From a virus (taxonomy: Duplodnaviria > Caudoviricetes), in the IMG/VR virus record IMGVR_UViG_3300020419_001132: a stretch of 64,000 nt of DNA. One strand, written 5' to 3'. Of this stretch, positions 13,236 through 56,504 are shown in pieces; the stretch's first letter is position 1, and every line of letters starts with the position of its first letter. The notes beneath the pieces were generated by a model. The model searched no databases, was not told the origin of the DNA, and saw only the letters and a list, made by a program, of their open reading frames with translations. Both the position numbers and the translations under genes were made by a program.

Positions 13236-13241
13236 TAAATA
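13236..13241 (+). promoter_or_regulatory. Late promoter TAAATA, predicted leaderless start
   Basis: TAAATA-TAGTT-ATG(13247), no SD. Confidence 0.6.
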
Positions 13242-13246
13242 TAGTT

Positions 13247-13534
13247 ATGTTTATAAATGAATATACAAAGGAGTTTAGATATTCACGCAAATCTAAACTA
13301 GGCACCGATCATCCTTATTTTAGGCAGAAAACAATAGTGGTTTTACGTTGTGATAACTGTAATAATCAGTTTGAAAGGGCTAGAGGTAGTATGAATCCTA
13401 ATAGGATTAATAATAACTTCTTTCATGTATGTTCAGAATGTGATGCAAAAGTTTTTGCACAAAGAAAAGGAATAGAAAAGAAGCAGATATGGAATTTACC
13501 TGCTTCTAGTGATTTAGATATTTCTAAGTTGTGA
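13247..13534 (+). CDS. Small putative Zn-binding protein
   Basis: 95 aa with CDNC and CSEC pairs; own TAAATA box; fills the gap between minus-strand genes. Confidence 0.7.
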   Translation: MFINEYTKEFRYSRKSKLGTDHPYFRQKTIVVLRCDNCNNQFERARGSMNPNRINNNFFHVCSECDAKVFAQRKGIEKKQIWNLPASSDLDISKL

Positions 13535-13796
13535 CATATGTTGCATCTTTATAGCAACATGCATGATCTGAAGGATTATCTAATGAATGTTTGGCCGCAG
13601 TAAATACTGATTCCATCCAGTCTTCTCTCTCGTAAGGACTTACAGTATCTTTTAGTGATATCTTTACATTAGTGTCATTATCAGTAATCCAAACGTCCCA
13701 TAAAGAATGTACGTTGTCTCCTACAGTTCTTTTGTTAACACTTTCTTGTATTAAAACTGTATACTTACCAATTATTTGTACTCCAGATTTGTACAT
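13524..13796 (-). CDS. Hypothetical protein
   Basis: ORF track 13524..13829; start moved to ATG 13796 (MYKSGVQ) after SD-like AAGGGA. Confidence 0.6.
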   Translation of the reverse strand: MYKSGVQIIGKYTVLIQESVNKRTVGDNVHSLWDVWITDNDTNVKISLKDTVSPYEREDWMESVFTAAKHSLDNPSDHACCYKDATYVTT

Positions 13797-13804
13797 TTTA
13801 TCCC

Positions 13805-13969
13805 TTATTCCGATTTCCAGATAGTCCATGCGCCGTATGCAATAGCAACACCTGCCGCTATTTTAGCTAATGGAGCCATGAATAAGACTAGTAAACCTAA
13901 AATAATGCAAACTGCACCATCCCAAGTAGTACGTTCTTTTCTTCTAGTTTCAATCCATTTTTTAATCAT
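13805..13969 (-). CDS. Small membrane protein (54 aa)
   Basis: Manual: MIKKWIETRRKERTTWDGAVCIILGLLVLFMAPLAKIAAGVAIAYGAWTIWKSE; SD GGAGG; hydrophobic hairpin. Confidence 0.7.
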   Translation of the reverse strand: MIKKWIETRRKERTTWDGAVCIILGLLVLFMAPLAKIAAGVAIAYGAWTIWKSE

Positions 13970-14076
13970 TTTTTACCTCCTTTAAGACAGACTGTTGGCA
14001 TAGGATTAATAATTCTTTTTATTCCTTCCCATACTTTTTTTAATATATATGATATTGTTTCTGTCAAGGTTATCAT
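13966..14076 (-). CDS. Small ORF (36 aa)
   Basis: MITLTETISYILKKVWEGIKRIINPMPTVCLKGGKK; TAAATA 4 nt upstream; ATGA overlap with the next gene. Confidence 0.45.
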   Translation of the reverse strand: MITLTETISYILKKVWEGIKRIINPMPTVCLKGGKK

Positions 14077-14080
14077 ACAA

Positions 14081-14086
14081 TATTTA
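14081..14086 (-). promoter_or_regulatory. Late promoter TAAATA, predicted leaderless start
   Basis: TAAATA-TTGT-ATG(14076). Confidence 0.5.
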
Positions 14087-14371
14087 TATAATAAAAAGCT
14101 GGATAAAAGCCCAACTATTCATTACTGTAAACCAGCTCGTTAACACAATAGCACTACTTCTTCTAATATAACAACTAACGACAGCTAATGTGCTTCCAAT
14201 TAAATACAGGGGAATAAAAAGGTGCGTAGCTGGATCTAGTATTGTGGCACTTAGAATCGCACTTCCTGCAATTAAAACTATTGCTTCAGTTACCTCGCAG
14301 TAAAATGCAACTTTACTGCGTTGATAACTTTCTCTAAAATAATCAAAAATTTTGTTGTATAGCTCTTTCAT
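14084..14371 (-). CDS. Small multi-TM membrane protein
   Basis: 95 aa, three hydrophobic segments, SD AGGA. Confidence 0.7.
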   Translation of the reverse strand: MKELYNKIFDYFRESYQRSKVAFYCEVTEAIVLIAGSAILSATILDPATHLFIPLYLIGSTLAVVSCYIRRSSAIVLTSWFTVMNSWAFIQLFII

Positions 14372-15365
14372 ACAATTCCTTACTAGCTAAGTTTTTAGCT
14401 TTACTCTCAACCATAATGTCTGCATGTTGCCAAAATGACAATGCCCAATCGTTAACGGCTGTATTCCACATATAATCACTATGTGCTCTAAGTTTTTGTT
14501 TCTTGTAACCATTCTCTAACAAATGCTCCATATTAGGCAAATGATCTACTGAATGTGTATCTATGTAATCTTCTCTAGAAACAGAATAGTGTATTACAGG
14601 TCTCACGCCACGCCAGCTATCTATTATGCGAGAAAATCTATCGTCGGTTGGCTGTATATATTCACCTGTTTTGACCCAGTGATGGTGTATGTCGAGGACC
14701 AATGCGAGCTTGTGGCCGAGCTGAAGGCTAGCTTCGATGCCCCACGAGTTTTCGTCGTTTTCGATCGTAATTGTATTTCTCGCCTCTTGAGATAATCTTG
14801 GGTAAGCGTCGATGATACCGGCTGGACCTTGGCGACCGGAGATGTGTACGTTGATCTTAAAATCTTGGAATTGCTTGCCGTATCCAAGCCACCTTGCGAC
14901 ATCCACATGATATTCAAACTCCTCTATACTTCTATTTACTATATCTGGGTTATCACTAGCAAGGACAGTGAACTGACCAGGGTGCATACTAAGGCGTACA
15001 TCAAGATTCCTAGCCAACTCGCCGACTGGTGCCAAAGACCGTTCACAATATTCACGTACATCAGGTAACCGCCAGAAGTAGCACCAAGTAGGCTCAGTGT
15101 AAACAGGTAGTACATCGGAGCCAAGTCTAACCATTCGTAATTCATTTTGTAATCCTCCTACGTATGTAATAAGATTTTTGTAAGACTCTATGTTGTGGAC
15201 CATTATATTCCACAGTCGTTCTTCTGCAACTTCTTTTGTTTGTCTATTCAACCAAGCTACAGTTGTAGAACGTGTGTTCAACGGACGTTGAAGTTCTTCA
15301 AGAAGTTTCTTCTTCTGTGTTTGATCTTGATGCATGTATTTACATGCAAAGCCTATACGTTTCAT
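14343..15365 (-). CDS. uvsE: UV damage endonuclease UvsE/UvdE
   Basis: RIGFAC, RLSMHPGQFTVLAS, ENDE, LVLDIHHH and LRAHSDY motifs. Confidence 0.95.
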   Translation of the reverse strand: MKRIGFACKYMHQDQTQKKKLLEELQRPLNTRSTTVAWLNRQTKEVAEERLWNIMVHNIESYKNLITYVGGLQNELRMVRLGSDVLPVYTEPTWCYFWRLPDVREYCERSLAPVGELARNLDVRLSMHPGQFTVLASDNPDIVNRSIEEFEYHVDVARWLGYGKQFQDFKINVHISGRQGPAGIIDAYPRLSQEARNTITIENDENSWGIEASLQLGHKLALVLDIHHHWVKTGEYIQPTDDRFSRIIDSWRGVRPVIHYSVSREDYIDTHSVDHLPNMEHLLENGYKKQKLRAHSDYMWNTAVNDWALSFWQHADIMVESKAKNLASKELYERAIQQNF

Positions 15366-15371
15366 TGTTTA

Positions 15372-15400
15372 AGTATACTATATTTTATGCCATCTGTCAA
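15372..15400 (-). promoter_or_regulatory. Sigma70-type promoter for uvsE
   Basis: TTGACA-17 nt-TATACT, 6 nt before the ATG, so uvsE is also predicted leaderless. Confidence 0.75.
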
Positions 15401-17023: not shown

Positions 17024-17596
17024 TTATAAAACGTCTAGATTGTCAAGAAAAACATTAGGGTATTTCCAAGAATCTGGCAAAATCCATTGTCTATTTTGAT
17101 ATACAGTAAACTTATTTAAAGGAAAGTACTCAAATACCTTACTAATCTGGTGTATCCAATAGCTTGGATCAACAGCATGTTTATCTGAATTGTCATAATG
17201 TGTAGTGCTTTTGTAAACGTTGTTTACTGTACCTGTTGTGCTGAAAAGATCAAATCCTATCAATTTTACTTTTTTTGATAAAGTAGCGGCAAGTAAAACT
17301 GCATAAGGTCCACTACCCCATTGGAAGGGTTCATCCTTTCTTTCTTCTGGTTGGTATGGAACTGTAGGTACAAGCTCTACATTTTTGTGTGCAGAAAACT
17401 GTCCTATCCAATCTTTCCTTGTGTATATTGTGTTTGTGAATTTACTTTCTAATGCTTCCTGCACCATACGTCTATCCACACATACCAAATGATCAACTTC
17501 GTAATCCCTACGGATAGCATTACAACCTATTTTACAAATATCAATTTTGTCTAAGTCAATTTGAAGTCGACTTTCACCATTTCCAATTACAAGCAT
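17024..17596 (-). CDS. MAF_flag10/MptE- or sialyltransferase-like protein
   Basis: LVIGNGESR...IGCNAIRRD...LVCVD, WGSGPYA and LIGFDL motifs. Confidence 0.55.
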   Translation of the reverse strand: MLVIGNGESRLQIDLDKIDICKIGCNAIRRDYEVDHLVCVDRRMVQEALESKFTNTIYTRKDWIGQFSAHKNVELVPTVPYQPEERKDEPFQWGSGPYAVLLAATLSKKVKLIGFDLFSTTGTVNNVYKSTTHYDNSDKHAVDPSYWIHQISKVFEYFPLNKFTVYQNRQWILPDSWKYPNVFLDNLDVL

Positions 17597-17600
17597 AGTG

Positions 17601-17606
17601 TATTTA
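17601..17606 (-). promoter_or_regulatory. Late promoter TAAATA, predicted leaderless start
   Basis: TAAATA-CACT-ATG(17596). Confidence 0.6.
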
Positions 17607-18198: not shown

Positions 18199-19292
18199 GC
18201 CTGGATTAATCCGAAAGATTTCCATTCGCCGGGAGATCCCGGTCTTGTACATATCCAACCAACGTAACCACTTGGTTTTGGATCGTTGTTCCATATTACA
18301 TCTCCTTTCACATAGGAGCCTGTTGTTGGAGAGCCTGGCCCGACTTCAAATTTCTTATTTTGAATTCTTACTGGACCTGCTGTTGTAATATCAACATCAT
18401 TTGAAAAGTTCTTTACACCAACTCCTAGCTTACCGTCAATAGTTGTTTTGCTATTTAAGGATATTTCTCCACTGGCACCAATTTCTATTCTGGCCTTGTC
18501 ATCAGTGATTATTTCTAAACTACTGGTTGTCCAAGTGCCCACTTTAAACTTTTTATCAATTGTGTCGTCTATTACAAATTCGTGATCTATACTTTTTAAA
18601 CTAAGCATAGCATTTGGACTATCAGTCCCTATACCTAGCCTTTGAGAATCGCTATCCCAAAATATAAAGTGATCTATATTAATATTGCCTTCTGTATTTA
18701 GATCTTGCACAGTACCTAATTTTTTTAGACTACTGTTTACTACAGAACTTCCAAGAGTAGTAAGTGTCATTACAGGTATTTTATCTATCCTGTATACCTT
18801 TTCTCTGTCTAAATCGATATCCTCACTACTCCATAGTCTGTTTGTTTCTTCTTGGAAAACAAATTGTTTAGTGTAATCTTTTCCTGACCACATTAAACCT
18901 TTACCGTGTAGTGAATCATTTTCAGCCTTAAATTCTAATGAAGAAGTTCTTTCATTTCTAACATCAGCTGTTACTTCATCAACCTGCAACTTTGTTGCAT
19001 GGACTAATCCGTGTACTGTAAGATCTCCTTGTACTGTTACTGGTTTTGTTAAGATATTAGTATGTATCTTATCAACAGTTATACCGTCATTATGAATAGT
19101 TAATTTAGTACTCTTTGCTTCATCTGTTACACCAACTGATTTGAAGTTGGTAATCATTCCGCCGTTGATCTTATTACCGCTTAATTCACGGTCAAGTATC
19201 GCAGGAGTAGGAGCAGGACTACTTGCTAATTCATCTACTGCACTAGCAAGTGAATCTAAACCGGATTTTATTGTTTTGATATCGATGTTCAT
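18195..19292 (-). CDS. Virion structural/tail-associated protein
   Basis: Beta-rich; LGIGT repeats; C-terminal GDVIWNNDPKPSGYVGWICT...GEWKSFG motif of tailspike-type C-termini. Confidence 0.65.
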   Translation of the reverse strand: MNIDIKTIKSGLDSLASAVDELASSPAPTPAILDRELSGNKINGGMITNFKSVGVTDEAKSTKLTIHNDGITVDKIHTNILTKPVTVQGDLTVHGLVHATKLQVDEVTADVRNERTSSLEFKAENDSLHGKGLMWSGKDYTKQFVFQEETNRLWSSEDIDLDREKVYRIDKIPVMTLTTLGSSVVNSSLKKLGTVQDLNTEGNINIDHFIFWDSDSQRLGIGTDSPNAMLSLKSIDHEFVIDDTIDKKFKVGTWTTSSLEIITDDKARIEIGASGEISLNSKTTIDGKLGVGVKNFSNDVDITTAGPVRIQNKKFEVGPGSPTTGSYVKGDVIWNNDPKPSGYVGWICTRPGSPGEWKSFGLIQA

Positions 19293-19297
19293 GCAAG

Positions 19298-19303
19298 TAT
19301 TTA
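19298..19303 (-). promoter_or_regulatory. Late promoter TAAATA, predicted leaderless start
   Basis: TAAATA-CTTGC-ATG(19292). Confidence 0.6.
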
Positions 19304-22267: not shown

Positions 22268-22977
22268 CAAATATATTGGAAAGCTCTGTCTGCAAAGACT
22301 TTATGAGATTGTTCTCCTGGATGTGAATTGTCTAAAGCAAAATCTTGCATTGTTTTTGATATATCAACTATTCCACTAACTTTAATTGGTACATAATTTA
22401 TAGAATCCAAGTCGTGTTTTTTCATAAAATTTCTTTCGTGATAGCTTTTACCACAAGAAAAATAATATGCTGTAATATTTTTATGTTTTAAAAAAAGGTA
22501 TACATAGTTTGTTAGAGTTATCCAATCAAGATGAATATGTGCTTCTTCTGCAAAAAAACTTACCCAAACTTTATCAAGGGCAGTTGATTTAGGTTTCCTA
22601 TTAGCAAAAATTTGTTCTATTACCCATTCACCATATTTTTCATTTGGATTGTAAGGTGCATTAGTCCCCAAGCCGGATTCGGCTTCAGGCTCATATTTAA
22701 TAAGACAACTTCTAGGAATAGGGGGAAACATTACTACAACCATATCGCCCTTTCGATATTTTGTTGTTTGTATCTTATGTACTACTTCTCTCATACTAGC
22801 ACCAGGATTACTTAGATTTAAACAAACTCTGTTTAGATCATTACTTAATAATTGAGGCCAGGCAAACTTAGAAGGTTGCTCTCCTGCACCCATACCTATT
22901 GCACAATCTCGTAATCCGTGTCCGTATGTATTACTGCATCCAAAGGCTATTAGGCGTCTTTTTTTAGGTTTCTTCAT
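22255..22977 (-). CDS. SGNH/GDSL-like hydrolase
   Basis: IAFGCSNTYG (block I), NLSNPGAS (block II), DNSHPG (block V). Confidence 0.75.
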   Translation of the reverse strand: MKKPKKRRLIAFGCSNTYGHGLRDCAIGMGAGEQPSKFAWPQLLSNDLNRVCLNLSNPGASMREVVHKIQTTKYRKGDMVVVMFPPIPRSCLIKYEPEAESGLGTNAPYNPNEKYGEWVIEQIFANRKPKSTALDKVWVSFFAEEAHIHLDWITLTNYVYLFLKHKNITAYYFSCGKSYHERNFMKKHDLDSINYVPIKVSGIVDISKTMQDFALDNSHPGEQSHKVFADRAFQYICQNT

Positions 22978-22982
22978 GTCAA

Positions 22983-22988
22983 TATTTA
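22983..22988 (-). promoter_or_regulatory. Late promoter TAAATA, predicted leaderless start
   Basis: TAAATA-TTGAC-ATG(22977). Confidence 0.6.
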
Positions 22989-23039: not shown

Positions 23040-23043
23040 CAGA

Positions 23044-24912: not shown

Positions 24913-25204
24913 CTTCTTCTCCTCTAGTTACTTTGGTTACTCTGTCATATTTAAATGACCGCCAGCCGTTGGCGTTAATATCCCAAACTGTGACATTACC
25001 TTCTGGAGGCTCTTTGTCCGTTTTTGGTCTATGGGATTCTGGAATTAGTTTAAAATCCTTTGTACAAGTCATTACCCTTTCATCACCGTTTAGTTTGTTA
25101 AACGTAATTACAAGGGTACTTTCTCGTAATTGCTTATTTAAATCTTCTTTAGTCGGGATGCCTTTTAGTTCAGCGACCTTCGACGATACTATCTGCAAGT
25201 CCAT
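24899..25204 (-). CDS. DUF2693/WYL-like SH3-fold protein
   Basis: [14 protein letters not shown]...[17 protein letters not shown] motif of T4-like DUF2693. Confidence 0.75.
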
Positions 25205-25754
25205 ATCCTATTGCCTCTTTTGCACTCATGTAAAAATCTCTATCCATATCTTTGGCAACCGTATCTCTTGGCTGTCCTGTATGTTTTACGTATATGTCAG
25301 TCAATGTTTCTTTCCAATATTGTAACTCTTTATATTGTATTTCAACATCACTAGCCATACCTTGTGTTCCGCCACTTGGTTGATGAATCATATGTCTAGC
25401 ATGTGGGAGAACTTTTCTTTTTCCAGGCTCACCAGCCATTGCTAAGAAACTACCCATGCTGGCCGCAATACCCATTACTGTTGTATGCACTGGCGGTTTA
25501 ATAAAACTCATGGTATCATATATACTCATACCAGCAGTAACACTTCCGCCTGGACTATTAATATAAAAGTTTATAGGCTTTTCTTTGTTCTGTGATTGTA
25601 AGAATAACATCTGTGCTACGATTAAACTTGCACTTGTGCTATTGACATCTGTATCAAGCATAATAATTCTGTCTTTAAGTAATCGACTATAGATGTCATA
25701 AGACCTTTCGCCTCGACTTTCTTTTTCAATTACTACTGGAACTAAATTAGGCAT
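25170..25754 (-). CDS. clpP: ATP-dependent Clp protease proteolytic subunit
   Basis: [24 protein letters not shown] (Ser), MIHQP (His), DRDFYM. Confidence 0.97.
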
Positions 25755-29254: not shown

Positions 29255-29521
29255 TCATTTTTTAGGCTGTTCTTCTTTTTTAATTTCATTTTCAAACTTT
29301 TTATCTTTTGCATCATCTTTCCATCTAGGTTGTTCTCTTTGATCTAGTTGTGCTTTAAATTTTTTTATTACTGACTTGTTGTTTCCTGATCGCGTAATAA
29401 ACATCTTAATAGCAATATATCCATCTCCTTTAAATATTAATTTTCCATTATCATATAGAATAGCTCTTGACGAGTTGGTCAAGTCAAGTTCTATATTTTG
29501 AAATGTATATCGCACTCCCAT
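29255..29521 (-). CDS. Hypothetical protein
   Basis: Start moved to ATG 29521 (MGVRY), 5 nt after TAAATA. Confidence 0.65.
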   Translation of the reverse strand: MGVRYTFQNIELDLTNSSRAILYDNGKLIFKGDGYIAIKMFITRSGNNKSVIKKFKAQLDQREQPRWKDDAKDKKFENEIKKEEQPKK

Positions 29522-29526
29522 AAAAA

Positions 29527-29532
29527 TATTTA
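29527..29532 (-). promoter_or_regulatory. Late promoter TAAATA, predicted leaderless start
   Basis: TAAATA-TTTTT-ATG(29521). Confidence 0.55.
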
Positions 29533-30780: not shown

Positions 30781-31785
30781 TTATATGGCAAATTCCATCT
30801 GTGGATGGACTGTTTGTTCTGAACCGTATAGTTGTACTGCTTGAGTTTTCAGTACACCACTTACATCTACTGCTTCATTAAAGAACAAGCTATGTGCCTT
30901 AGGCCCATCTAACAATAACATTGCATCAAAGTTACTCATTCTTTTGTAGTTTGTAAACGATAATAGACCCCACTCATGTCTAATTTGATTAGCATCACCG
31001 GATATGATTGCATTTTTCAACTGAGCTACTTCGCCCTTTTCCATATAAGCAAAGGCACCTGAAATAATAGCTTCTGCAAGTCCTGGTAAATTCTTAGGGT
31101 CTATTGTGCCTCTAATGTCTCTTACAAATTTGATAGCAGTTACAGATTTGACAGTATCAGTATCAAAGCCTGCCTGTTTAAATGCGGCTTCTACTGCTCT
31201 TTGATTAAACTTGGCTTTTCTTGCGTCTTGGAATCTACCTCCTGAGCTTTGTTTAGCTTTTACTTCAGTCATGACTCCGTCTATTACAAGGTCGCCAGCA
31301 AACTCTGCAGATCTGCCTGCAAATTGTATAGTAGGACTTAATACTGCTAGAGCAAATTCTCCTGCTCCTATGCCTTGGGGTGTGTAGGTGTAAATATTTG
31401 AAAACACTCTTTTTACAAATGCATCTCCCATTAGCCATTCGTCGAATGAATGCACTTGGTTAGGTGTTCTAAGTTTTTCACTGTCAATATATCCGCCCTC
31501 AAAGTTGTTAAGAAAGTTTTCCTTTTCAACATAGGTGCCCTGTGTATTCATTATGTATCCTGCAAACACCTGTAGCTTTGATTTTGCATCTTGGTCTTGT
31601 GATAGTGTTGCGGCAATACGTTCGTCTAATGTAGATTTTTCTAATGCTTGGTATATTCTGTCAAGCATTTCTCTATCTTTTTCTGTTGCTAACCTCTTTA
31701 CGATGATATCTTTTAATTGATCATCAGAAATATTAGGATCATATTCTAAAAGAGTTGCATTAGGTGTGAATTCACTGTATCGCAT
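30781..31785 (-). CDS. Putative head-internal protein with PD-(D/E)xK nuclease-like domain
   Basis: MRYSEF...LLE N-terminus; GAGEFAL...GDLVIDGVMTEVKAK catalytic-like motif. Confidence 0.6.
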   Translation of the reverse strand: MRYSEFTPNATLLEYDPNISDDQLKDIIVKRLATEKDREMLDRIYQALEKSTLDERIAATLSQDQDAKSKLQVFAGYIMNTQGTYVEKENFLNNFEGGYIDSEKLRTPNQVHSFDEWLMGDAFVKRVFSNIYTYTPQGIGAGEFALAVLSPTIQFAGRSAEFAGDLVIDGVMTEVKAKQSSGGRFQDARKAKFNQRAVEAAFKQAGFDTDTVKSVTAIKFVRDIRGTIDPKNLPGLAEAIISGAFAYMEKGEVAQLKNAIISGDANQIRHEWGLLSFTNYKRMSNFDAMLLLDGPKAHSLFFNEAVDVSGVLKTQAVQLYGSEQTVHPQMEFAI

Positions 31786-31790
31786 AAAAG

Positions 31791-31796
31791 TATTTA
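31791..31796 (-). promoter_or_regulatory. Late promoter TAAATA, predicted leaderless start
   Basis: TAAATA-CTTTT-ATG(31785), overlapping the pcyX stop. Confidence 0.6.
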
Positions 31797-33046: not shown

Positions 33047-33358
33047 TTATGCTTTTTCTATCTTGATATTTAGTGGGAAGCCTGAATTTCTTGATAACAA
33101 AGTGGCTTCTGTACCTTTTTGTTCTGCAATTTCAAAGGAAAATGTTCCAGCTATTCCACTTCCATCAGTATGTATGTCTAATGTAAGTTTTTCAGCTGTC
33201 TCTCTGCTATGTCTAAATACACCCATTAATACTTCTATTACAAATTCCATAGGTGTGTGATCATCGTTCAATAGAACCACATTCCATTTACCTGGCTCGA
33301 TTACAATACGTTCGATCTTTTCGTCTAATTTAACTTCTGTGTCTGTTGCTACTGTCAT
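33047..33358 (-). CDS. clpS: N-end rule adaptor ClpS
   Basis: VVLLNDDHTPMEFVIEVL, LDIHTDG, AEQK, FPL. Confidence 0.93.
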   Translation of the reverse strand: MTVATDTEVKLDEKIERIVIEPGKWNVVLLNDDHTPMEFVIEVLMGVFRHSRETAEKLTLDIHTDGSGIAGTFSFEIAEQKGTEATLLSRNSGFPLNIKIEKA

Positions 33359-35664: not shown

Positions 35665-35937
35665 CTAGTATCCACGATCTAATTTATCTTTGGCTTGTTT
35701 TTTAAGCCATCTTGCCCTGCCTGCGGCTTTTGCCTTTGCACGTTTTTCACTAGGTTTAACGTATGCTTGACGCTCACGTACTTCCTGTATAATTCCTGCT
35801 TCTTGTACTTTCTTTTTAAATTTTCTAAGTGCACCATTTACATCGTTATTTCTTACAATAACTTCAATTCCTCCGCTATGCGAAAAATCACGTTCTTTGT
35901 ATTCTCGCCCCCTACGTTTGTTGTTGTTAAATCTCAA
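35665..35937 (-). CDS. rpsU: Ribosomal protein bS21 with N-terminal extension
   Basis: IEVIVRNNDVNGALRKFKKKV...RERQAYVKPSEKR. Confidence 0.9.
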   Translation of the reverse strand: MRFNNNKRRGREYKERDFSHSGGIEVIVRNNDVNGALRKFKKKVQEAGIIQEVRERQAYVKPSEKRAKAKAAGRARWLKKQAKDKLDRGY

Positions 35938-36415: not shown

Positions 36416-38206
36416 TTATTCTTCCGCCTTTAAACGTAGTTGTTGATTCTCTACTTTGGTTAGGTAACCTTTCTTTTTTTTTGAATCTAATGTTTCTGCT
36501 GGAAGATATGACTCCCAAGGAAAACTATCTATTTTTTTATCTAAGTACCATTGTTTATAAGTTGCAATATTTTCTCCTGGATTATCTAGTTTCCAGGCTT
36601 TTTTAGCTTCTTTCCAATCATCTAATAGTTCTAGTGCTTCAATGTCTTCCGCGGTTAATCTGTATTCTTCCGACGATGACTCTTTTTTTTCGAGTTGCTC
36701 TGGCTCCGCAGGTACAAGTTTAGGTTCTTGTTCTACTTCTTTATCTTCGTATAGTTCTTGCCATTCCTCTGTTGTATCTGCTTCCTTTTTTTCAAAGTCA
36801 AATTCCAATTGATTAGGATCTTTTTCCTCTCCATATTCAAGAGCATTTTTATTCCAATCAGTTTTGTCAAACATATCTGAAGTAGGCGATCCACTAACCT
36901 TTTCCAATAGATCTTCAGTTTCAACTTCTTCCTGTTCTTCTGTATTCTTTTCGTTGTCAACAATTTTTTGTGCTCTAGCTTGTTCATACTTACGCCACTG
37001 ATCATTAGGTGACTTTGGTTTCCTAAATTCTAATGTGTATTGGCTAGCAATTAAAAGAAGTACTGCAAGTGGATCAAAAACAAAAATAATTAAAATTATA
37101 ACCCAACGTACTGCTTCTTCTAGTAAATCTCTGTTGACATCTTCTCCGTATATCAATTCTGCGATATACTTAATAGGTCCTACTTCTGCCTCTAGCTTTC
37201 TATATTCTGCTTCTAAGCTATATTTCTGTTCTGTAAGACTATCTATTTCAGCATTTGCATTTTTAATTTTTAGTAGCTCTGCTTCTATAAATTCTGTATT
37301 ATTGTCTGGAGTTACACTTCCTATGTCTTGCCTAAGTTTATTAATTAGCTTGTTAGAATCTGCAATTTCTTTTTCAGCTATGTCTCGCAGTCTTTTAATT
37401 TCATTGTTAGCCGCGACTATTAATGGAGATTCTTTTGCTTCTAATGTTCGTATAGTCTGTAGTATACTATCTCTTTTTGCAACAAGACCTTCTCTATATG
37501 CTTCTACCTGCCCCGCAGTATTAGATCCATAATTACCATCTACTCTTGTGCCAACAATGCTTTGTAAACGTTTTATACTTTCAGTGTCACGCCTATTGAG
37601 TAAATTAGTTAAAGTAGCCAAGTCAGCATCTATGCTTTCTACTTGTGCTAGGTACGGCTCAACCTTTTTGTCTTTACGTAATAACTCTTGTTTTATAACT
37701 TCTTGTTGTTCAGCTACTAATGGCTTGATTCTTTCATAAGCAGTATCAATTCTTTTTTGTTCTCTATCAATTTGATCCTGTATAGTATCGTTTTGATTTG
37801 CTCCTGCATTTTCTGTTTTTGTAATCTTAGCTTCTGCTCTAACTATTATAGCATCATACCTGGCAAGGTCTTTTTCTATACGAGCAATCTGTTCAATGCT
37901 TTCATTACTAGCACTAGTTTGTTCTATATGTGCTTTGGATAGAAAACCAAAGATACCCATGCTAGTTATTACCATGAGAAGAACTACTGCTATACTTAAA
38001 TATGTTTTAAGCCACCAGGCCGCTTGTTTCCAATACCTATGAAGCCAAACAGCCGTAACTAATTTGCCAACTTCTAACACACCGCCCATCACCATAATAG
38101 GTATTGCCGCGGCGGCAAAAATAGCAACCAAACCTGCTATTGAATAGTATATTGCAACTGCACTAATGCATAATGCAGTTATTAGTGTTAATATCGCTAA
38201 GAACAT
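36416..38206 (-). CDS. Inner-membrane coiled-coil protein with peptidoglycan-binding-like motif
   Basis: Three N-terminal TMs, long coiled coil, LQSIVGTRVDGNYGSNT, further TM, acidic tail; start MFLAIL; possible -1 extension to 36312. Confidence 0.75.
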   Translation of the reverse strand: MFLAILTLITALCISAVAIYYSIAGLVAIFAAAAIPIMVMGGVLEVGKLVTAVWLHRYWKQAAWWLKTYLSIAVVLLMVITSMGIFGFLSKAHIEQTSASNESIEQIARIEKDLARYDAIIVRAEAKITKTENAGANQNDTIQDQIDREQKRIDTAYERIKPLVAEQQEVIKQELLRKDKKVEPYLAQVESIDADLATLTNLLNRRDTESIKRLQSIVGTRVDGNYGSNTAGQVEAYREGLVAKRDSILQTIRTLEAKESPLIVAANNEIKRLRDIAEKEIADSNKLINKLRQDIGSVTPDNNTEFIEAELLKIKNANAEIDSLTEQKYSLEAEYRKLEAEVGPIKYIAELIYGEDVNRDLLEEAVRWVIILIIFVFDPLAVLLLIASQYTLEFRKPKSPNDQWRKYEQARAQKIVDNEKNTEEQEEVETEDLLEKVSGSPTSDMFDKTDWNKNALEYGEEKDPNQLEFDFEKKEADTTEEWQELYEDKEVEQEPKLVPAEPEQLEKKESSSEEYRLTAEDIEALELLDDWKEAKKAWKLDNPGENIATYKQWYLDKKIDSFPWESYLPAETLDSKKKKGYLTKVENQQLRLKAEE

Positions 38207-38210
38207 ACAA

Positions 38211-38216
38211 TATTTA
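38211..38216 (-). promoter_or_regulatory. Late promoter TAAATA, predicted leaderless start
   Basis: TAAATA-TTGT-ATG(38206). Confidence 0.6.
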
Positions 38217-40764: not shown

Positions 40765-41226
40765 TTAGTTTCTCCTCATTGTTGCTATTTCTGTCGCCTG
40801 TTTTGAACCAGTCTTGTCGTCATCATCAGCAAACACAGGAACCATGTTAGACTTGTGCATAGTTGCAATACCAACAAGTCTACGTTCTCCTGTATATTGT
40901 AAACTTTCTTTCTTTGTGCAAGGTGCAAAAGAATGATGCGAATTAAGACTAGGTGCTTCCTTTTCTGGTCTTTGCCAGACATTTCCGCCTTCATGAACCC
41001 AATCGGCTTTAGGCGCCGCCTTTGCTCTAGGCTTGTGTTCGCCGTGACAATAAGCAATAAATTGTTCGAGATCCATTTGTAGATTATGAGAACCTATACG
41101 TCTCATATCTTTGTTATGTATCTTTAGTTGTTCTTGGAATTTTGCAATTTTTTGCAGGGTAAGTTTTTTCTTCTTGGGCTTCTTGGTGTTAAGTGTAGTG
41201 AGCCCTCTTTGTAAATGCATGGTCAT
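40765..41226 (-). CDS. Hypothetical phage protein
   Basis: C-terminal GIATMHKSNMVPV motif recognised from T4-like phages. Confidence 0.75.
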   Translation of the reverse strand: MTMHLQRGLTTLNTKKPKKKKLTLQKIAKFQEQLKIHNKDMRRIGSHNLQMDLEQFIAYCHGEHKPRAKAAPKADWVHEGGNVWQRPEKEAPSLNSHHSFAPCTKKESLQYTGERRLVGIATMHKSNMVPVFADDDDKTGSKQATEIATMRRN

Positions 41227-41647: not shown

Positions 41648-41860
41648 TTATTGCGAAAAGTCTAAAGTTGGTATTTCACGTGTGAAAGGTTCAATATCTT
41701 CTTGTGCAATACACATTAAAGAAAAGTCCAAATCCATTGTGCTAATGTAGATTTCGTGATTTTCACACTCTTCTCTGGTGTCAAAGTGTCTATCTGTAAT
41801 TACATTAAAGTTTAATTCGCTGAAAAAACTTAAAAAAGATAATACTAATACAAATTTCAT
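41648..41860 (-). CDS. Small exported protein
   Basis: 70 aa, hydrophobic N-terminus, two Cys. Confidence 0.55.
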   Translation of the reverse strand: MKFVLVLSFLSFFSELNFNVITDRHFDTREECENHEIYISTMDLDFSLMCIAQEDIEPFTREIPTLDFSQ

Positions 41861-41868
41861 AATAACTT

Positions 41869-41907
41869 AATATACTATAAAATTTATAAGAAGTCAACCG
41901 GTTTTGG
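41869..41907 (-). promoter_or_regulatory. Sigma70-type promoter with upstream CCAAAA box
   Basis: CCAAAA-CCGG-TTGACT-17-TATATT. Confidence 0.65.
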
Positions 41908-42259: not shown

Positions 42260-43239
42260 TTATCAGAATCCAGATAGTTCCTCATCATGTTGCCTAAACC
42301 TTTTTTAAGTCTACCAAAGTACCCAGGCTTATCCTCTGGCTCTGCTTTAGGTTCAATTGCTTTCTTTACTGCTTTGTCAATAGCAGTCTTGTCTACCGTA
42401 GGTTCTTTCTTTGAAGGTTCTAACTCTGCTGGTCTTTTAAGAGGAGGTTTAGTAACCAGCTTATCTCGCATAGGAACACCATCACCATATAGGCTTTTAG
42501 CTTTTCCGTAATGTTTATAATTCCAAGCCTTTCCAAAGTCTTCTAATGTGGCTGTTTCTCTACCGTCTTTTTTTGCAATTCTATCTCCAAATTTCATCTT
42601 TAGTAAGATAGTTTCTAACATTAATTTTGTAAGTTTTTCTATACTGGTTACATCATCCCAATCAGCAAAGTTAAAAGTGCCTCCCTTTACATCGCCGTAC
42701 GTTTTAGGTTCAACCTGTCCTGGGCCAATACCACTATCAAGATTTCCGTTTACATCATGATAACTTGCATAAGCACTAGTCCATGCATTGATAGGATTTT
42801 CAATTGCTTTCACAACATCAATACAACCTCTAGGTGCACTTACTCCACTAGATGCTATAGAACTTTCAACACGAGAGTTTATATAGTTGTCATTAAATTT
42901 ACTTGAATTTTCCATAAACCCTTTCATGGTCGATACATCAAGAACACCTGATGTCGGAAGACCACATTCTTTTTGCATCATTCCTACAAATGTATAAAAT
43001 CTTATAGCAGTTCCGCCTCTGTTCATTATGTTAGGATTGATGTATGCCATTCCTTGGCTAATACACCATTCCCTAAATTTGGCTCTTGCAGATCTGTGTA
43101 GGCCTCCAGGATCGTTTTTAAACTGTCCTTTTGAACCTGACCTTTGGGCAGTAGGTGTTTTTTTAAGAATACTAATAATCTGCTGGCCAAGTGCCACAGT
43201 CTTATCTTCTTTCTCTAAAATTATTTCTTGAACTAGCAT
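42256..43239 (-). CDS. Putative virion protein with peptidoglycan-binding-like motif
   Basis: MLVQEIILE N-terminus; MQKECGLPTSGVLD motif; possible lysozyme-like region (IEN...GPGQV...WNY). Confidence 0.55.
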   Translation of the reverse strand: MLVQEIILEKEDKTVALGQQIISILKKTPTAQRSGSKGQFKNDPGGLHRSARAKFREWCISQGMAYINPNIMNRGGTAIRFYTFVGMMQKECGLPTSGVLDVSTMKGFMENSSKFNDNYINSRVESSIASSGVSAPRGCIDVVKAIENPINAWTSAYASYHDVNGNLDSGIGPGQVEPKTYGDVKGGTFNFADWDDVTSIEKLTKLMLETILLKMKFGDRIAKKDGRETATLEDFGKAWNYKHYGKAKSLYGDGVPMRDKLVTKPPLKRPAELEPSKKEPTVDKTAIDKAVKKAIEPKAEPEDKPGYFGRLKKGLGNMMRNYLDSDK

Positions 43240-43244
43240 ATTAA

Positions 43245-43250
43245 TATTTA
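43245..43250 (-). promoter_or_regulatory. Late promoter TAAATA, predicted leaderless start
   Basis: CTAAATA-TTAAT-ATG(43239). Confidence 0.6.
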
Positions 43251-43364
43251 GTCGTATATGAATGGGTCTTGTTTTTTAAGTTCCCTCTTACGTTTCCGGT
43301 AACGTAACTCTTGTTTTATATATGTATACGGCCAAAGTATGATTTCAATTATTCTGGCAAGCAT
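43248..43364 (-). CDS. Small protein (38 aa) coupled to the carbamoyltransferase
   Basis: Manual: MLARIIEIILWPYTYIKQELRYRKRKRELKKQDPFIYD; overlaps the upstream stop. Confidence 0.6.
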   Translation of the reverse strand: MLARIIEIILWPYTYIKQELRYRKRKRELKKQDPFIYD

Positions 43365-44830
43365 ATTTCAACTCCATAATTTGCACTCCATCTAAGTGCA
43401 TCCTCTTTTGTATTTACTAAAGGTTCGCCTTTGATATTTAAACTAGTGTTAAGTAACATAGGACATCCTGTTGTTTCATACCAACGTTCTAACAGTTGTC
43501 TGAATCCGCTATTATCATCTCTAGATACTGTTTGAACTCTGCTCGTGTTATCGTAGTGTGTGATGGCAGGAAACGTATCAGGGTCTCTACACGTTGCTGT
43601 ATATTGCATGTACGGGCCAGTGATGCCTGCAAAATAGTCTTTTGTATGTTCTTCAAGTATTGCTGGTGCAAAAGGTCTGAATGCTTCTCTTCTTTTAAGT
43701 TTGTTAACTCTGTCTTTAACATTCTTTCCTCTTGGATCGGCCAGTATACTTCTGTTGCCCAAAGCCCTAGGCCCAAACTCAGCCCTACCACTAGCAACGG
43801 CAGTAATATGATTTTTTTGTAATTCTTGTAAAATTTTTTCAACAGGGTAATTTCCATTTATGTTATGTCCTAAATATGGACCAGGCCAATCTATATGTCT
43901 TTGCCATTTTGCCAAAACACATCCTATGGCACTTCCAGCATCTCCTGGGTTTGGCATGATCCAAACATTTTTAAATCTTTTGTGTGCTAACGGATTAGCC
44001 ACACAGTTTAAAATACAACCTCCCATTAATACTAAGTTTTCTTTTTTTGTAGTATTAGCAGTATAATCTATTAAACTTGCAAAAATTTCTTCGTATATCT
44101 GTTGTACAGCCGCGGCAATATCTGCAAAGTCCTTGTCACTATTTAAGTCGGGTGCCCAATCTTTGCATCCTCTGTGGCAATCTCTTGAAAACATTACATA
44201 TGGATCATCAGCAGATGGCATTTTAGCGATGAAGTCATCAATAATTCTTTGATATAATCTATCGGGATCTCCTATAGCCGCCATGCCCATTAACACATAT
44301 TCATGTTCTTGTGGAATTAATCCTATACGTTGGGTCATGGCACTATACCACATACCAACACTATCAGGATAACGTTGGCTTCTTACCTTTTTCAATGTAG
44401 GACCTTCACCCTTCCATATACTAAGAGTCTCCCATTCTCCTATACTATCGATACACAATACAGCCGCATCAGTATATGGACTGGTGTAGTATCCAGCAGA
44501 AGCATGACTAAGATGATGTCCAGTACTGATGCTTCTTGGAGCTTCTTTGTAAAACTTTCTCATATGTTGGGTGGGAGATTCTTTTTTTAGAAGATGATAT
44601 TGCCCTGCAAATAGTTGTCTTGTCTTTTTTAACAAAGGTTTTTCGTAGAAGTAAACCTTGTTTGGTACGCCAAATTCTAATATAGCATCAGAAAGTAACC
44701 AGTGATTTAGGTTTTTATCGTTTTTAATACGACTGTAACGTTCTGCATGAGAAGCAAATTTTAATTCATTATTTACGAATACTGCTAAACTAGCATCATG
44801 TGACAGTCCACTCCAGCCCCATGTAATCAT
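43349..44830 (-). CDS. O-carbamoyltransferase (NodU/CmcH/TobZ family)
   Basis: HDASLA, HHLSHA, GGCILN, EFGPRALGNRSILADPR, REAFRPFAP, LLNTSLN; start MITWG. Confidence 0.93.
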   Translation of the reverse strand: MITWGWSGLSHDASLAVFVNNELKFASHAERYSRIKNDKNLNHWLLSDAILEFGVPNKVYFYEKPLLKKTRQLFAGQYHLLKKESPTQHMRKFYKEAPRSISTGHHLSHASAGYYTSPYTDAAVLCIDSIGEWETLSIWKGEGPTLKKVRSQRYPDSVGMWYSAMTQRIGLIPQEHEYVLMGMAAIGDPDRLYQRIIDDFIAKMPSADDPYVMFSRDCHRGCKDWAPDLNSDKDFADIAAAVQQIYEEIFASLIDYTANTTKKENLVLMGGCILNCVANPLAHKRFKNVWIMPNPGDAGSAIGCVLAKWQRHIDWPGPYLGHNINGNYPVEKILQELQKNHITAVASGRAEFGPRALGNRSILADPRGKNVKDRVNKLKRREAFRPFAPAILEEHTKDYFAGITGPYMQYTATCRDPDTFPAITHYDNTSRVQTVSRDDNSGFRQLLERWYETTGCPMLLNTSLNIKGEPLVNTKEDALRWSANYGVEICLPE

Positions 44831-44835
44831 ATTAA

Positions 44836-44841
44836 TATTTA
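44836..44841 (-). promoter_or_regulatory. Late promoter TAAATA, predicted leaderless start
   Basis: CTAAATA-TTAAT-ATG(44830), identical to the site at 43245. Confidence 0.6.
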
Positions 44842-44849: not shown

Positions 44850-45161
44850 AAAATGGCCCGTTCTGTTGCCCGGTGGAACCATACCGCGAAGCTCACCGGT
44901 TATTAAGCGGCAATAAGTTCACGATCCATAGAAAGATCTAAAGAAGTGAACGCTCCAGGTGCAAAATTATCGTTTGCATTTGTAGTGTTTGTTCGCGTTA
45001 ACCGAGCTTACATCCGGACAACTCCACGTTTCTATTAACTGCCTGTCGATCCTATTTCAGCCCCATCATAAGCACACTCTCATTCTCAGTGTGTTTATGG
45101 TGGAGCTGTCGGGTACCGCCCCCGAGTCCAGTCCAACTTTCGAATTGCTTCAACGTTGCAA
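44850..45161 (-). ncRNA. ssrA: Circularly permuted two-piece tmRNA (alphaproteobacterial type)
   Basis: Acceptor piece ...GACTCGGGGGCGGTACCCGACAGCTCCACCA (ends 45098), hairpin intervening segment, coding piece GGGGCTGAAATAGGATCGAC from 45064; tag ANDNFAPGAFTSLDLSMDRELIAA at 44977-44903; TAAATA at 45166-71. Outer ends approximate. Confidence 0.9.
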
Positions 45162-45171
45162 TACGTATTTA

Positions 45172-45348
45172 TTACATATTATTTTTCTTTTCTTGGACTT
45201 CCTTACGTCTTTCTTTTGTAAGTTTACCAAGATCTCCCAATGCTTTTCTAGCACGGGCCGCCGCCGCTTTAACACCTTTATCTTCAAATGTTTGTGATTC
45301 AGCAACGTAATTATTAAACGCCTGCACGATCTGTTCGTGTGTACTCAT
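45172..45348 (-). CDS. Histone H1-like (Hc1-like) small basic protein
   Basis: Manual 58 aa: MSTHEQIVQAFNNYVAESQTFEDKGVKAAAARARKALGDLGKLTKERRKEVQEKKNNM; SD AAGGAG. Confidence 0.7.
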   Translation of the reverse strand: MSTHEQIVQAFNNYVAESQTFEDKGVKAAAARARKALGDLGKLTKERRKEVQEKKNNM

Positions 45349-51226: not shown

Positions 51227-51253
51227 AATTGCTCCTATCTAATTCAATAGTAT

Positions 51254-51937
51254 TTATGCCGTATGCTTCTCATAGTATGTGTACAGTCTCTTGTACCATT
51301 CTTGTTGCCACTCCTCATATTCGTGTGGCCATAGATCAAATTGTTGATATTGCAAATCTCTACTACACATGAATACGTGTCCTTCACGTATTTCTGTGCC
51401 GTATATTTCGTTGTGTGCTTCTGCATATGCTACTAATTGTAGATAATAATCTATTACCCATTCTTCTTTTTTAGGTTTATTGGTTTGTTTGAAATCCATT
51501 ATACAAGCATTACCTTTGTATTGTCCTACTAAATCCGTAGTGCCTGCATACATCTGTGGCATATATAAATTTACTTCACTACCCCATATTTCGTCAACAT
51601 CTACAAGAGCTTGATCCCTAACTTGTTCAGCCATCTTATGTGCTTGTTGGGCATAAGGATTGGAGCCAGGTGTAGGCCATTCACCTGTTTCTACATAATC
51701 TTCTAGATACTTGTGCATACGTGTTCCCACACTGGATGCTTCTGTAACTATCTCCTGTGCTTTTTGCTCGCCAACTCTTTTTCTCCAAGCAATAAGATGT
51801 GTTTTATCTTTGGTTGCATCTAATATGGTTGTTACACTCGCAACTGAATTCCCGTCAGGAGTCAGATACTTACGCCTACCATCTATGCTTTTTCTCTCAA
51901 TAGGAGTGTATTTGTGTTTTTCAATAATTAGGGTCAT
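51254..51937 (-). CDS. PD-(D/E)xK exonuclease
   Basis: ASVTTIL, GTRMHKYLE, GSE, YAGTTDL, IMDFKQT, YYLQLVAY; start MTLII. Confidence 0.88.
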   Translation of the reverse strand: MTLIIEKHKYTPIERKSIDGRRKYLTPDGNSVASVTTILDATKDKTHLIAWRKRVGEQKAQEIVTEASSVGTRMHKYLEDYVETGEWPTPGSNPYAQQAHKMAEQVRDQALVDVDEIWGSEVNLYMPQMYAGTTDLVGQYKGNACIMDFKQTNKPKKEEWVIDYYLQLVAYAEAHNEIYGTEIREGHVFMCSRDLQYQQFDLWPHEYEEWQQEWYKRLYTYYEKHTA

Positions 51938-54415: not shown

Positions 54416-54614
54416 TCTTTTTTACCAAAAAAGAGTTGTGTTCGTTTCCTATCTTACTTACTAAACTTTTGCGTATTAGATTGTCTAAAATGAATTGCTG
54501 TCTCTCGGTGTACGAATTATACGATTGCGAGGTAGACGGCATCTTCTTTAAGAAAACTTCCTCTTCATTGGTAGTAAAAATTGTAAAATCACTTATGATT
54601 TCATTTAATTTCAT
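54405..54614 (-). CDS. Small putative head protein
   Basis: MKLNEII N-terminus. Confidence 0.65.
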   Translation of the reverse strand: MKLNEIISDFTIFTTNEEEVFLKKMPSTSQSYNSYTERQQFILDNLIRKSLVSKIGNEHNSFLVKKNAT

Positions 54615-55015
54615 TACATGGGTCCTGCGACTTTAACTTTTGCCCCTGGCATAAGTTTGTCTGCTACTTGCCCTTTAGATTTGGGATCTAGTTTGAATCC
54701 TTTTCCAGTTGGATCATCTGGGTCTGGTTGTATCATTCCTGGTTTGTTTGGATCTTTAGGAACGATTGTTTGAACTTTGGTTTTAGGATCAATAAGCGTA
54801 ACCTGCCTATCATCCGCATTGACTACATTAAGTTCCTGCTGTTCTTCAAGCTCTGATTTTTTTGGCTTATCATGGGTCCAACCTTTTTTTGCTAGGTCTA
54901 GGTGATCCTGTTCAACTTTTGCCATTTTACTTTTACCAGTCTTAGGATCATACATTAGATGTGGTTTGAACTTTTCGTCCTTTTTGGAGTCAGTTATAAT
55001 TTCGTGATATCTCAT
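54614..55015 (-). CDS. Putative head-internal protein
   Basis: MRYHEIITD N-terminus; Lys/Pro/Asp-rich. Confidence 0.65.
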   Translation of the reverse strand: MRYHEIITDSKKDEKFKPHLMYDPKTGKSKMAKVEQDHLDLAKKGWTHDKPKKSELEEQQELNVVNADDRQVTLIDPKTKVQTIVPKDPNKPGMIQPDPDDPTGKGFKLDPKSKGQVADKLMPGAKVKVAGPM

Positions 55016-55422
55016 TTGAACTTTTTCCTTCCGAATGGTGTTTTCTTTGGCTTGTTAAGTCTTGGTAACCTCATACTAGCAGGATTTGTTCTCCTAGTAA
55101 TTTTAGCTTGGTTTGCCATTGTTCCGCCTCGTTTCTTTTTCAGTGTGCTTAATCCAACACTCTTTTTTACATTTATTGGAGCATTACATGCCGCCGGACT
55201 ACTCATTACACGACCTTTTCGATGTCCGTGTGTGCATCTATACTTTCGTGTTTGCTTTCCTCCAGTCCGTGACCAAACTCTTGCTACTTCTTTAACTAGT
55301 TCACCATCTGGCATAACACTATAACCATCTGGAATAGGTTTGCACATACCTGAAGTCCTACAATAGTATTCTCCATCTTTGCATTGAGTTTCTCTTTCTA
55401 TTATAAGTTCACGTAAATTCAT
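55012..55422 (-). CDS. Highly basic putative core protein (paralog B)
   Basis: MNLRELIIE; RKYRCTHGHRKGRV...AACNAP. Confidence 0.7.
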   Translation of the reverse strand: MNLRELIIERETQCKDGEYYCRTSGMCKPIPDGYSVMPDGELVKEVARVWSRTGGKQTRKYRCTHGHRKGRVMSSPAACNAPINVKKSVGLSTLKKKRGGTMANQAKITRRTNPASMRLPRLNKPKKTPFGRKKFK

Positions 55423-55694
55423 CTTGATGCCTTATTTAAAGCCTGCACCCTACGAGATGTAGGATTCATACGTTTTGTTCTCTTGGCTTTCCTAGCCATC
55501 CTGTTGCCTAGTCTAGCTTTGGTTTTCTTTAAAAGTATACGTTTCTTCACATCAGGTGCTTTGTAGCACTGAGCAGGTGTTGCAACCACACGCCCTTTTC
55601 TGTTGCCGGAAGAACATCTATACTTTCTAACAACCTTCTTGCCTGACTTTGCCCAGGCCATTCTTTCAGTTATGGCGAACTCACGTAATAGCAT
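55419..55694 (-). CDS. Highly basic putative core protein (paralog A)
   Basis: Start moved to MLLREFAITE; RKYRCSSGNRKGRV...AQCYKAP. Confidence 0.7.
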   Translation of the reverse strand: MLLREFAITERMAWAKSGKKVVRKYRCSSGNRKGRVVATPAQCYKAPDVKKRILLKKTKARLGNRMARKAKRTKRMNPTSRRVQALNKASR

Positions 55695-55699
55695 ACTCG

Positions 55700-55705
55700 T
55701 ATTTA
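55700..55705 (-). promoter_or_regulatory. Late promoter TAAATA, predicted leaderless start
   Basis: TAAATA-CGAGT-ATG(55694). Confidence 0.6.
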
Positions 55706-55707
55706 TG

Positions 55708-55944
55708 TTATTGTACGTTAATGAGGATAACAATGATAGTGGATAATAGACCTGCAACAACAGTTCCTGCGGCTCCAATCATTACTTTCATCATGGATTT
55801 ATTGCCGTGTACTATGTCATTATGAATATGTTCGACTTTTTCTTCAATCTTCGTGAGACGTGAATTCAAGTTCTCATACCTCTGTTGGCATAAGTCAACG
55901 TGTGCTTCTAAGTTTTCTCTTTCTAAATCAGTGGCACCTGCCAT
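55708..55944 (-). CDS. XhlA/holin-like coiled-coil plus TM protein
   Basis: Heptad repeat followed by one C-terminal TM. Confidence 0.55.
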   Translation of the reverse strand: MAGATDLERENLEAHVDLCQQRYENLNSRLTKIEEKVEHIHNDIVHGNKSMMKVMIGAAGTVVAGLLSTIIVILINVQ

Positions 55945-56050
55945 CTTTTATCTCCGTTCCTATGTCTCTTGGACGGGGCCTATGTTTTTATGCCTTGCAG
56001 ATGTAATATTTGCCGAAGTTCGTTGCCTATTCGTTACTATTCTATTTATT

Positions 56051-56485
56051 TCAAATAATGTCATTATTATCAGTAGAGTTAATATTTTCTTCGTCTATAA
56101 ATTTAAAAATAATGTTCTTTTCAACACTATCTTTCGTTCTAAAAGCATTATTGTTTATTAGAGCTGTTTCCTGTAGTCCTGTTACTACAGGTACAAGATC
56201 AAAGTCATCTATTAATGATTGCTGACTTATTCCACCCATGTATTCGTGTTCAAACTCAAATAGCCAGTATCTTTGCTTGTCGGTTATATTAGTTCCAAAC
56301 CCTAGGTTTGATACATCACCTGTCTTACTAGTACAACTTAAAGGAATAGGAAGTATCCTTAACCCTGCTGTTTGTAGCATAGCATTATGATTGGCTTGTT
56401 GGCCTCTATCTAATGTGTTTGACTGTCGATTTGCTTGTGTATTAGTCACATCAACGACGGTAATAATTTGTACCCGTTCTTTCAT
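56051..56485 (-). CDS. Hypothetical late protein
   Basis: 144 aa; TAAATA-GTTAC-ATG (box at 56491-96). Confidence 0.7.
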   Translation of the reverse strand: MKERVQIITVVDVTNTQANRQSNTLDRGQQANHNAMLQTAGLRILPIPLSCTSKTGDVSNLGFGTNITDKQRYWLFEFEHEYMGGISQQSLIDDFDLVPVVTGLQETALINNNAFRTKDSVEKNIIFKFIDEENINSTDNNDII

Positions 56486-56504
56486 GTAACTATTTAACGG
56501 TCAT

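Follow-up and report, generated by a model that had tools for sequence, protein, structure and literature searches.

How a phage gene is started when its ATG lacks a Shine-Dalgarno (SD) sequence and has a TAAATA hexamer only 4–5 nucleotides (nt) in front of it is the question raised by a 64-kb stretch of DNA from IMG/VR record IMGVR_UViG_3300020419_001132 (Caudoviricetes), hereafter the window. Its source is an uncultured, marine, T4-like giant (jumbo) phage, and nearly all genes of the window, which has a GC content of 36%, are located on the minus strand. The hexamers probably represent T4-type late promoters that fire on the start codon and would yield leaderless mRNAs. The motif, its spacing, the absence of SD sequences, and the conservation of this layout are directly observed in the DNA.

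Start codons abutting a TAAATA box

Thirteen TAAATA-N4/5-ATG sites had been listed in an earlier note on this DNA, and all of their coordinates proved to be correct. Twelve sites are on the minus strand and one is on the plus strand. The spacer is 4 nt long at the start codons 14076, 17596, 38206, and 40723 and 5 nt long at the remaining nine sites. The enrichment of this spacing over chance was confirmed using 100 second-order Markov simulations of the window: the minus strand contains 12 TAAATA-N4/5-ATG sites versus 2.19 ± 1.39 in the simulated sequences, with a maximum of 6. In the histogram of distances (d) between TAAATA and ATG on this strand, built for open reading frames (ORFs) of at least 60 amino acids (aa), d = 4 was found 3 times and d = 5 was found 8 times, and all other distances occurred at most twice. 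On the plus, non-coding strand, the single such site, 13247, belongs to a real divergent gene. Control hexamers showed no peak at 4–5 nt before ATG, and a search for variant boxes (TAAGTA and others) revealed no further sites of this short class within the window. The full 8-mer TATAAATA is present at only six places in the window.

The claimed lack of SD sequences also held: an SD of at least 4 nt was found at 1 of 12 short-class starts versus 48 of 73 other genes of the window (Fisher p = 2e-4). A pyrimidine occupied position −1 at all 12 short-class starts versus 27 of 73 other genes (p = 3e-5); a pyrimidine before the ATG is the usual Y(−1)R(+1) signature of a start site, here a predicted one. 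At only 3 of 13 sites (17596, 29521, and 31785) does the upstream gene end with the TAA of the box; the hexamer is therefore not accounted for by stop codons.

The box as a putative late promoter

The late promoter box of phage T4, TATAAATA, spans positions −13 to −6 and is served by the gp55 sigma factor, the gp33 co-activator, and the gp45 clamp (PMC2988020). Given this position of the T4 box, +1 coincides with the A of the ATG in TAAATA-N5 and falls one base off with N4 or N6. The objects for comparison were 36 related IMG/VR loci and an 82-kb syntenic contig, G001, giving about 680 kb of relatives in addition to the window. Non-redundant distances from the box to the start codon in the relatives and the window were bimodal: d = 4 was found 11 times, d = 5 was found 33 times, and d = 6 was found 9 times, and a second, broad mode at d of about 16–30 comprised SD-led genes. 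The start codons at d = 4–6 were 53 ATG, 1 GTG, and no TTG, indicating a strong AUG preference.

Evidence on the predicted start site independent of T4 is provided by the same phages, since among 57 SD-led promoters T was found at box+5 in 64% and a purine at box+6 in 80%. This is the classical signature of positions −1 and +1, as predicted, at the very place where the A of the short-class ATG is located at d = 5. The same geometry would hold were a host sigma factor to read ATAAAT as a −10 element. An A precedes the core TAAATA, itself fixed by the search, in 58%–61% of sites, but no conserved positions farther upstream and no −35 element were found in 53 abutting and 57 SD-led sites. With cultured Pelagibacter phage HTVC008M included, the 65 non-redundant short-class sites comprise 30 without the end of a co-directional gene in the 60 nt upstream, where their own promoter must therefore lie; some short-class sites follow terminators or transfer-messenger RNA (tmRNA). 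Distances, the −1/+1 signature, and conservation agree with the proposal that the box is a T4-type late promoter with a predicted +1 on or beside the ATG.

A second class of box-driven genes, led by an SD, had also been proposed and was found. One example is a gene for a 552-aa protein (51227..51256, minus strand), where TAAATA is followed by a 24-nt leader with AGGAG and an ATG; in G001, the box is followed by a 20-nt SD leader. The iscA-like gene (PF01521; 13188..13212, minus strand) has TAAATA, 19 nt with AGGGG, and an ATG. Box-led genes of the window include those for a tail fiber-like protein and a cell-wall hydrolase, as well as accessory genes.

Cultured T4-like phages

In T4, 25–29 nt separate the box from the ATG, the leader carries an SD, and the short class is absent; in cyanophage Syn9, the distance is 20–28 nt, and there are no sites at 4–5 nt. 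On the contrary, HTVC008M displays a sharp peak of 12 TAAATA-N5-ATG gene starts at d = 5, which match RefSeq starts and belong to gp2, gp4, gp48, the tape measure, baseplate wedge proteins, CsgF, a 2-oxoglutarate oxygenase, and others. The layout thus belongs to pelagimyophage-like phages rather than to T4-like phages generally. The divergent ATGs of HTVC008M gp2 and gp4 (18916–18943, L074) are 26 bp apart and each is 5 bases past its own box, leaving no space for leaders; this region is a putative compact bidirectional late promoter.

The window phage resembles T4 in the core box, the absence of a conserved −35 element, and a T followed by a purine at the predicted −1/+1. Through its cultured relative the likeness extends further, since in HTVC008M, which encodes gp55, the box precedes classical late virion genes. 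It differs from T4 in that the predicted +1 coincides with the ATG in about half of the genes driven by the box and in that the first two positions of the box are degenerate. HTVC008M shares bS21, NrdAB, and other genes with the window, which carries a tmRNA of the alphaproteobacterial type. However, the window phage is a much larger, distantly related jumbo phage, and 11 of 92 window proteins match HTVC008M.

Late-promoter prediction failed in pelagimyophages, and the layout was not described there (PMC7029224). The paper on Melnitz lists 15 late promoters without comment on their spacing. Literature searches turned up no paper on T4-like phages in which late promoters abut start codons, and a search for Syn9 transcription-start data returned nothing relevant.

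Conservation of the layout and switching between classes

Orthologs in related loci were compared for individual sites, all of which are on the minus strand except the first. TAAATA-N5-ATG at 13236..13249 precedes the gene for a 95-aa zinc-ribbon-like small protein, divergent from iscA, and the box, spacing, and ATG are kept in L005–L008. The site of the 365-aa tail fiber-like protein (TAAATA-N5-ATG, 19290..19303), where an upstream TGA stop abuts the box, is kept in the same four loci with differing spacer letters. At 55692..55705, ATAAATA-N5-ATG opens the gene for a 91-aa very basic protein; the box and N5 are kept in more than 10 diverged relatives, although the upstream DNA is unrelated. 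The gene for a 144-aa protein (TAAATA-N5-ATG, 56483..56496) directly follows an intrinsic terminator hairpin and T7, and its orthologs at 38%–45% identity keep TAAGTA or TAAATA, N5, and ATG behind a terminator, with four different spacers. CTAAATA-N5-ATG at 43237..43250 belongs to a 327-aa protein without assigned function, and orthologs in L001–L004 have TAAATA-N4-ATG, directly after the tmRNA 3′ end in L001, L002, and L004. The box of the gene for an 88-aa protein (TAAATA-N5-ATG, 29519..29532) is kept in L009 and L010, but L010 has no ATG there. The gene for a 240-aa GDSL-lipase-like protein (ATAAATA-N5-ATG, 22975..22988) has no co-directional gene upstream.

Four genes switch between the abutting and the SD-led layout among relatives, and in two of them, 31785 and 38206, the box is kept. 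In the gene for a 334-aa protein (ATAAATA-N5-ATG, 31783..31796), the box and the 5 nt behind it are retained in L009 and L010, where the ATG is preceded by an 11-nt insert that includes AGGAG. The gene for a 596-aa membrane protein (TAAATA-N4-ATG, 38204..38216) has a weak AGGT 9 nt upstream in the window; in G001, the same box is followed by a 27-nt leader with an SD, and the encoded N-terminus is unchanged. The gene for a 190-aa protein (phrog_30607; TAAATA-N4-ATG, 17594..17606) retains the box layout in L005, but L006–L008 have AAGGT and a TAAATG overlap instead. The fourth gene encodes a carbamoyltransferase of 493 aa (CTAAATA-N5-ATG, 44828..44841; the box begins 10 nt past the tmRNA 3′ end), whose G001 ortholog is SD-led and starts with GTG.

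Proposed mechanism and alternatives

According to the explanation we favor, the (A/n)TAAATA box would be the T4-type late promoter of the phage, melted by a gp55-type late RNA polymerase and placed at 11–13 genes of the window so that the polymerase, starting 6 nt past the box, would initiate at the first base of the ATG. Such a message would have neither a 5′ leader nor an SD, and a 70S ribosome or a 30S-IF2 complex would load on its 5′-terminal AUG. Other genes would use the same box with a 10–50-nt leader containing an SD. In operon-internal genes, read-through RNA would hold an SD-less internal AUG, which would be a poor start, and protein output would follow promoter firing. For the window phage, the position of the transcription start, leaderless translation, late timing, and dependence on gp55 are what we infer from the DNA.

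Several findings weigh against this explanation. The gp55 family (phrog_234), present in HTVC008M and Syn9, was absent from the fragments of eight relatives (10%–23% complete) in which it was searched for. Operon-internal sites account for 35 of the 65 in the short class, and reinitiation on read-through RNA could also serve to translate these genes. Many short-class members in the window are accessory genes, for which late timing is assumed, and the host is a candidate only, likewise its translation of leaderless mRNAs. The L009 ortholog of the window gene at 29255–29521 has a GTG at N5 behind the same box; leaderless initiation may tolerate GTG, or else the L009 copy may be expressed in another way.

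At two sites of the window, the genes themselves fit poorly. Full TATAAATA followed by N4-ATG (14074..14088, minus strand) opens an ORF of only 36 codons, after which an SD-led small ORF is located. It is doubtful that 14076 starts a leaderless gene. The target of the box may be the SD-led ORF, about 100 nt farther on, in which case 14076 would be a chance ATG within a leader of about that length; otherwise the site is a leaderless micro-ORF. This is the sole perfect TATAAATA beside an ATG, and the end of its ORF overlaps the AGGAGG of the next ORF, which encodes a small membrane protein. The cell-wall hydrolase gene (PF07486; 40721..40767, minus strand) has three in-frame ATGs, at 40765, 40741, and 40723. 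The first, 14 codons before 40723, is preceded by the SD GAGGAG and overlaps the upstream gene in a TAATG; 40741 stands at TAAATA-N7, and 40723 stands at TAAATA-N4 and begins a clean signal peptide. Both the SD-led 40765 and the box-led 40723 are kept in L001 and L002, which suggests two isoforms or two expression routes, and the product may be a dual-start lysis protein.

In the first alternative explanation, which we consider improbable, the box is a real promoter, but termination-reinitiation on polycistronic read-through RNA, with the ribosome scanning a gap of 11–14 nt, is the main source of operon-internal proteins, and the leaderless transcript is minor. A co-directional stop codon is indeed found within 60 nt upstream at 35 of 65 sites, at 20 of them within 12 nt or inside the box, and relatives of the 40723 and 17596 genes show TAATG or TAAATG coupling. 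On the contrary, the 30 sites that head their own units (after terminators, after tmRNA, or in divergent pairs) have an identical layout, and reinitiation needs no invariant hexamer, fixed gap of 4–6 nt, or pyrimidine at −1.

There is also only a slight probability that TAAATA-N4/5-AUG is an RNA-level signal rather than a promoter, namely, an AU-rich S1-type enhancer or a RegA-like repressor operator over the start codon. The motif is AU-rich and overlaps the initiation region, and it resembles the targets of T4 RegA, which are AU-rich. However, the same hexamer is found 16–30 nt upstream of SD-led starts, beyond the reach of the AUG, and orthologs gain an SD leader between the box and the ATG with the box retained. 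Divergent gene pairs, moreover, require promoters at exactly that place. A RegA-type operator is unlikely, since RegA acts on early mRNAs, whereas the HTVC008M box precedes classical late virion genes. The remaining explanation, a chance outcome of AT-rich DNA (36% GC) with TAA stops beside starts, which the box supplies at 3 of 13 sites, has a negligible probability and was rejected given the excess over simulation (12 versus 2.2 ± 1.4), the lack of a control-hexamer peak, the absence of the class in T4 at similar GC, and the conservation in orthologs.

Corrected gene starts and the carbamoyltransferase gene

Five gene starts had been regarded as over-extended in the ORF track, and four of the proposed corrections stood, those at 44830, 38206, and 55694 firmly and that at 29521 (replacing TTG 29581) plausibly; the fifth, 40723, resembles a dual start instead. 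At 44830, the alignment with the profile of PHROG 1601 begins at position 1, and GTG 44896, which would open the longer ORF, lies within the tmRNA. The start at 38206, which replaces ATG 38254, is backed by the G001 copy, which has the same N-terminus, and by the N4 layout kept in L010. The extension from TTG 55778, replaced by 55694, overlaps a conserved upstream gene, and public gene calls give a protein of 91 aa.

Two of the sites had been described as identical, and they share 16 identical bases, ATG included. The carbamoyltransferase gene is flanked by a 16-nt direct repeat composed of the promoter box, spacer, and ATG. In L001, L002, and L004, the ortholog of the 43239 gene is directly behind the tmRNA, whereas in the window (region 43237–44841, minus strand) the carbamoyltransferase gene is between them; in G001, this gene is located elsewhere, after ClpP, and has an SD. 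The carbamoyltransferase gene looks like a cassette that recombination has placed at the junction of promoter and start codon.

Host-type promoters and the proposed role of bS21 and tmRNA

Consensus or near-consensus promoters of the host type also abut SD-less ATGs. TTGACA-17-TATACT is followed after 6 nt by the ATG of a UvdE-type endonuclease (15363..15400, minus strand), and L005 has TTGACA-17-TATATT-6-ATG. TTGACT-17-TATATT is followed after 8 nt by the ATG of a 70-aa protein (41858..41897, minus strand), an arrangement kept in L001 and L002 (8 nt) and in L003 (6 nt). Neither gene has an SD, and 15365 and 41860 are predicted to start leaderless early messages. Several further cases are present in relatives, G001 among them, and in HTVC008M. 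The leaderless layout is thus not confined to late genes, and this suggests that the host is generally able to translate 5′-AUG messages rather than that a late switch operates.

The suggestion of the earlier note that late expression is controlled at the level of translation, made in view of bS21 and tmRNA in the window, found no support: host-type promoters share the layout, and nothing ties bS21 or tmRNA to the motif. The phage bS21 gene (PF01165, 59 bits; 35665..35937, minus strand) is itself SD-led (AGGAGG, TTG), with TAAATA 48 nt upstream. A broader scheme would make the leaderless start standard for promoter-proximal genes, early and late, in a large aquatic clade of T4-like jumbo phages infecting SAR11-like alphaproteobacterial hosts, with phage bS21 shifting host ribosomes between SD-led and 5′-AUG messages during infection; we regard it as speculative and improbable.

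Gene content and relatives of the window phage

The window was annotated as an accessory region of a T4-like myophage. Its genes encode a baseplate-wedge connector, tail fiber proteins, and a 3252-aa fiber protein, as well as NrdA/NrdB, DNA ligase, and an exonuclease. Other genes encode ClpP, ClpS, Hsp20, IscA, bS21, and a UvdE endonuclease, and the RNA genes are tRNA-Trp and a two-piece tmRNA. The latter is of the alphaproteobacterial type (RF01849, 125.7 bits; 44852..45207, minus strand), and its tag comprises 26 codons, with ANDNFA as the first residues. This type of tmRNA fits an alphaproteobacterial host, a candidate only. The genes for ClpP (25170–25754), the ClpS adaptor (33047–33358), bS21, and tmRNA, all on the minus strand, are located within 20 kb and together form a toolkit for protein tagging and degradation.

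A close cultured relative of the window phage was looked for, and none was found. The NrdA of the window is about 70% identical to NrdA of cyanomyoviruses and HTVC008M, and G001 has 34 proteins in common with the window at about 50% identity. The relatives from IMG/VR are fragments of 38–82 kb rated 10%–23% complete by CheckV, which means that they are jumbo phages. The window phage is common in Tara Oceans metagenomes. An exact-match search with the window gave no match in IMG/VR and, among metagenome contigs, only one 23-kb Tara contig; contigs with the 56485 protein all came from DNA metagenomes. In a search of genome contigs, ClpP showed about 60% identity to many proteobacteria, which is uninformative about the host. 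Its best match (71% identity) was found in L075 (JADHSL010000081.1), an 11.5-kb contig binned as a Pirellulales metagenome-assembled genome, which may be a mis-binned phage contig.

Significance and comparison with known leaderless systems

If RNA ends fit the predicted geometry, many genes of a widespread group of ocean phages, among them virion genes of HTVC008M, would be expressed with no ribosome-binding site, and the hosts of these phages would translate 5′-AUG messages efficiently. The layout would explain the failed late-promoter searches in pelagimyophages (PMC7029224) and would make the translation of genes inside operons depend on promoter firing. Moreover, it would offer a simple rule for mending mis-called starts in marine phage genomes, with four clear cases in the window. 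HTVC008M in culture with Pelagibacter HTCC1062 is a system where the layout is directly testable, and the gp2/gp4 pair is suitable for 5′-end mapping.

Leaderless mRNAs are known from phage lambda, whose cI gene is transcribed in this form from PRM, and from the transcriptome of Caulobacter. A leaderless transcriptome was also described in Mycobacterium (PMC4633059). The proposed layout is similar to these systems in a −10 element about 6–7 nt from the AUG, the absence of an SD, and near-exclusive AUG. However, they depend on the host primary sigma factor and are either single phage genes or host-wide features, whereas in the window phage a box of the phage late-sigma type is located at many genes, beside host-type promoters with the same layout. 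In T4, genes e, soc, and 49 are translated only from late-promoter transcripts, since a hairpin hides the ribosome-binding site in early read-through RNA. The likeness is that translation depends on which promoter made the RNA, but the T4 genes use RNA structure around the SD, whereas in the window phage what would matter is whether the AUG lies at the 5′ end.

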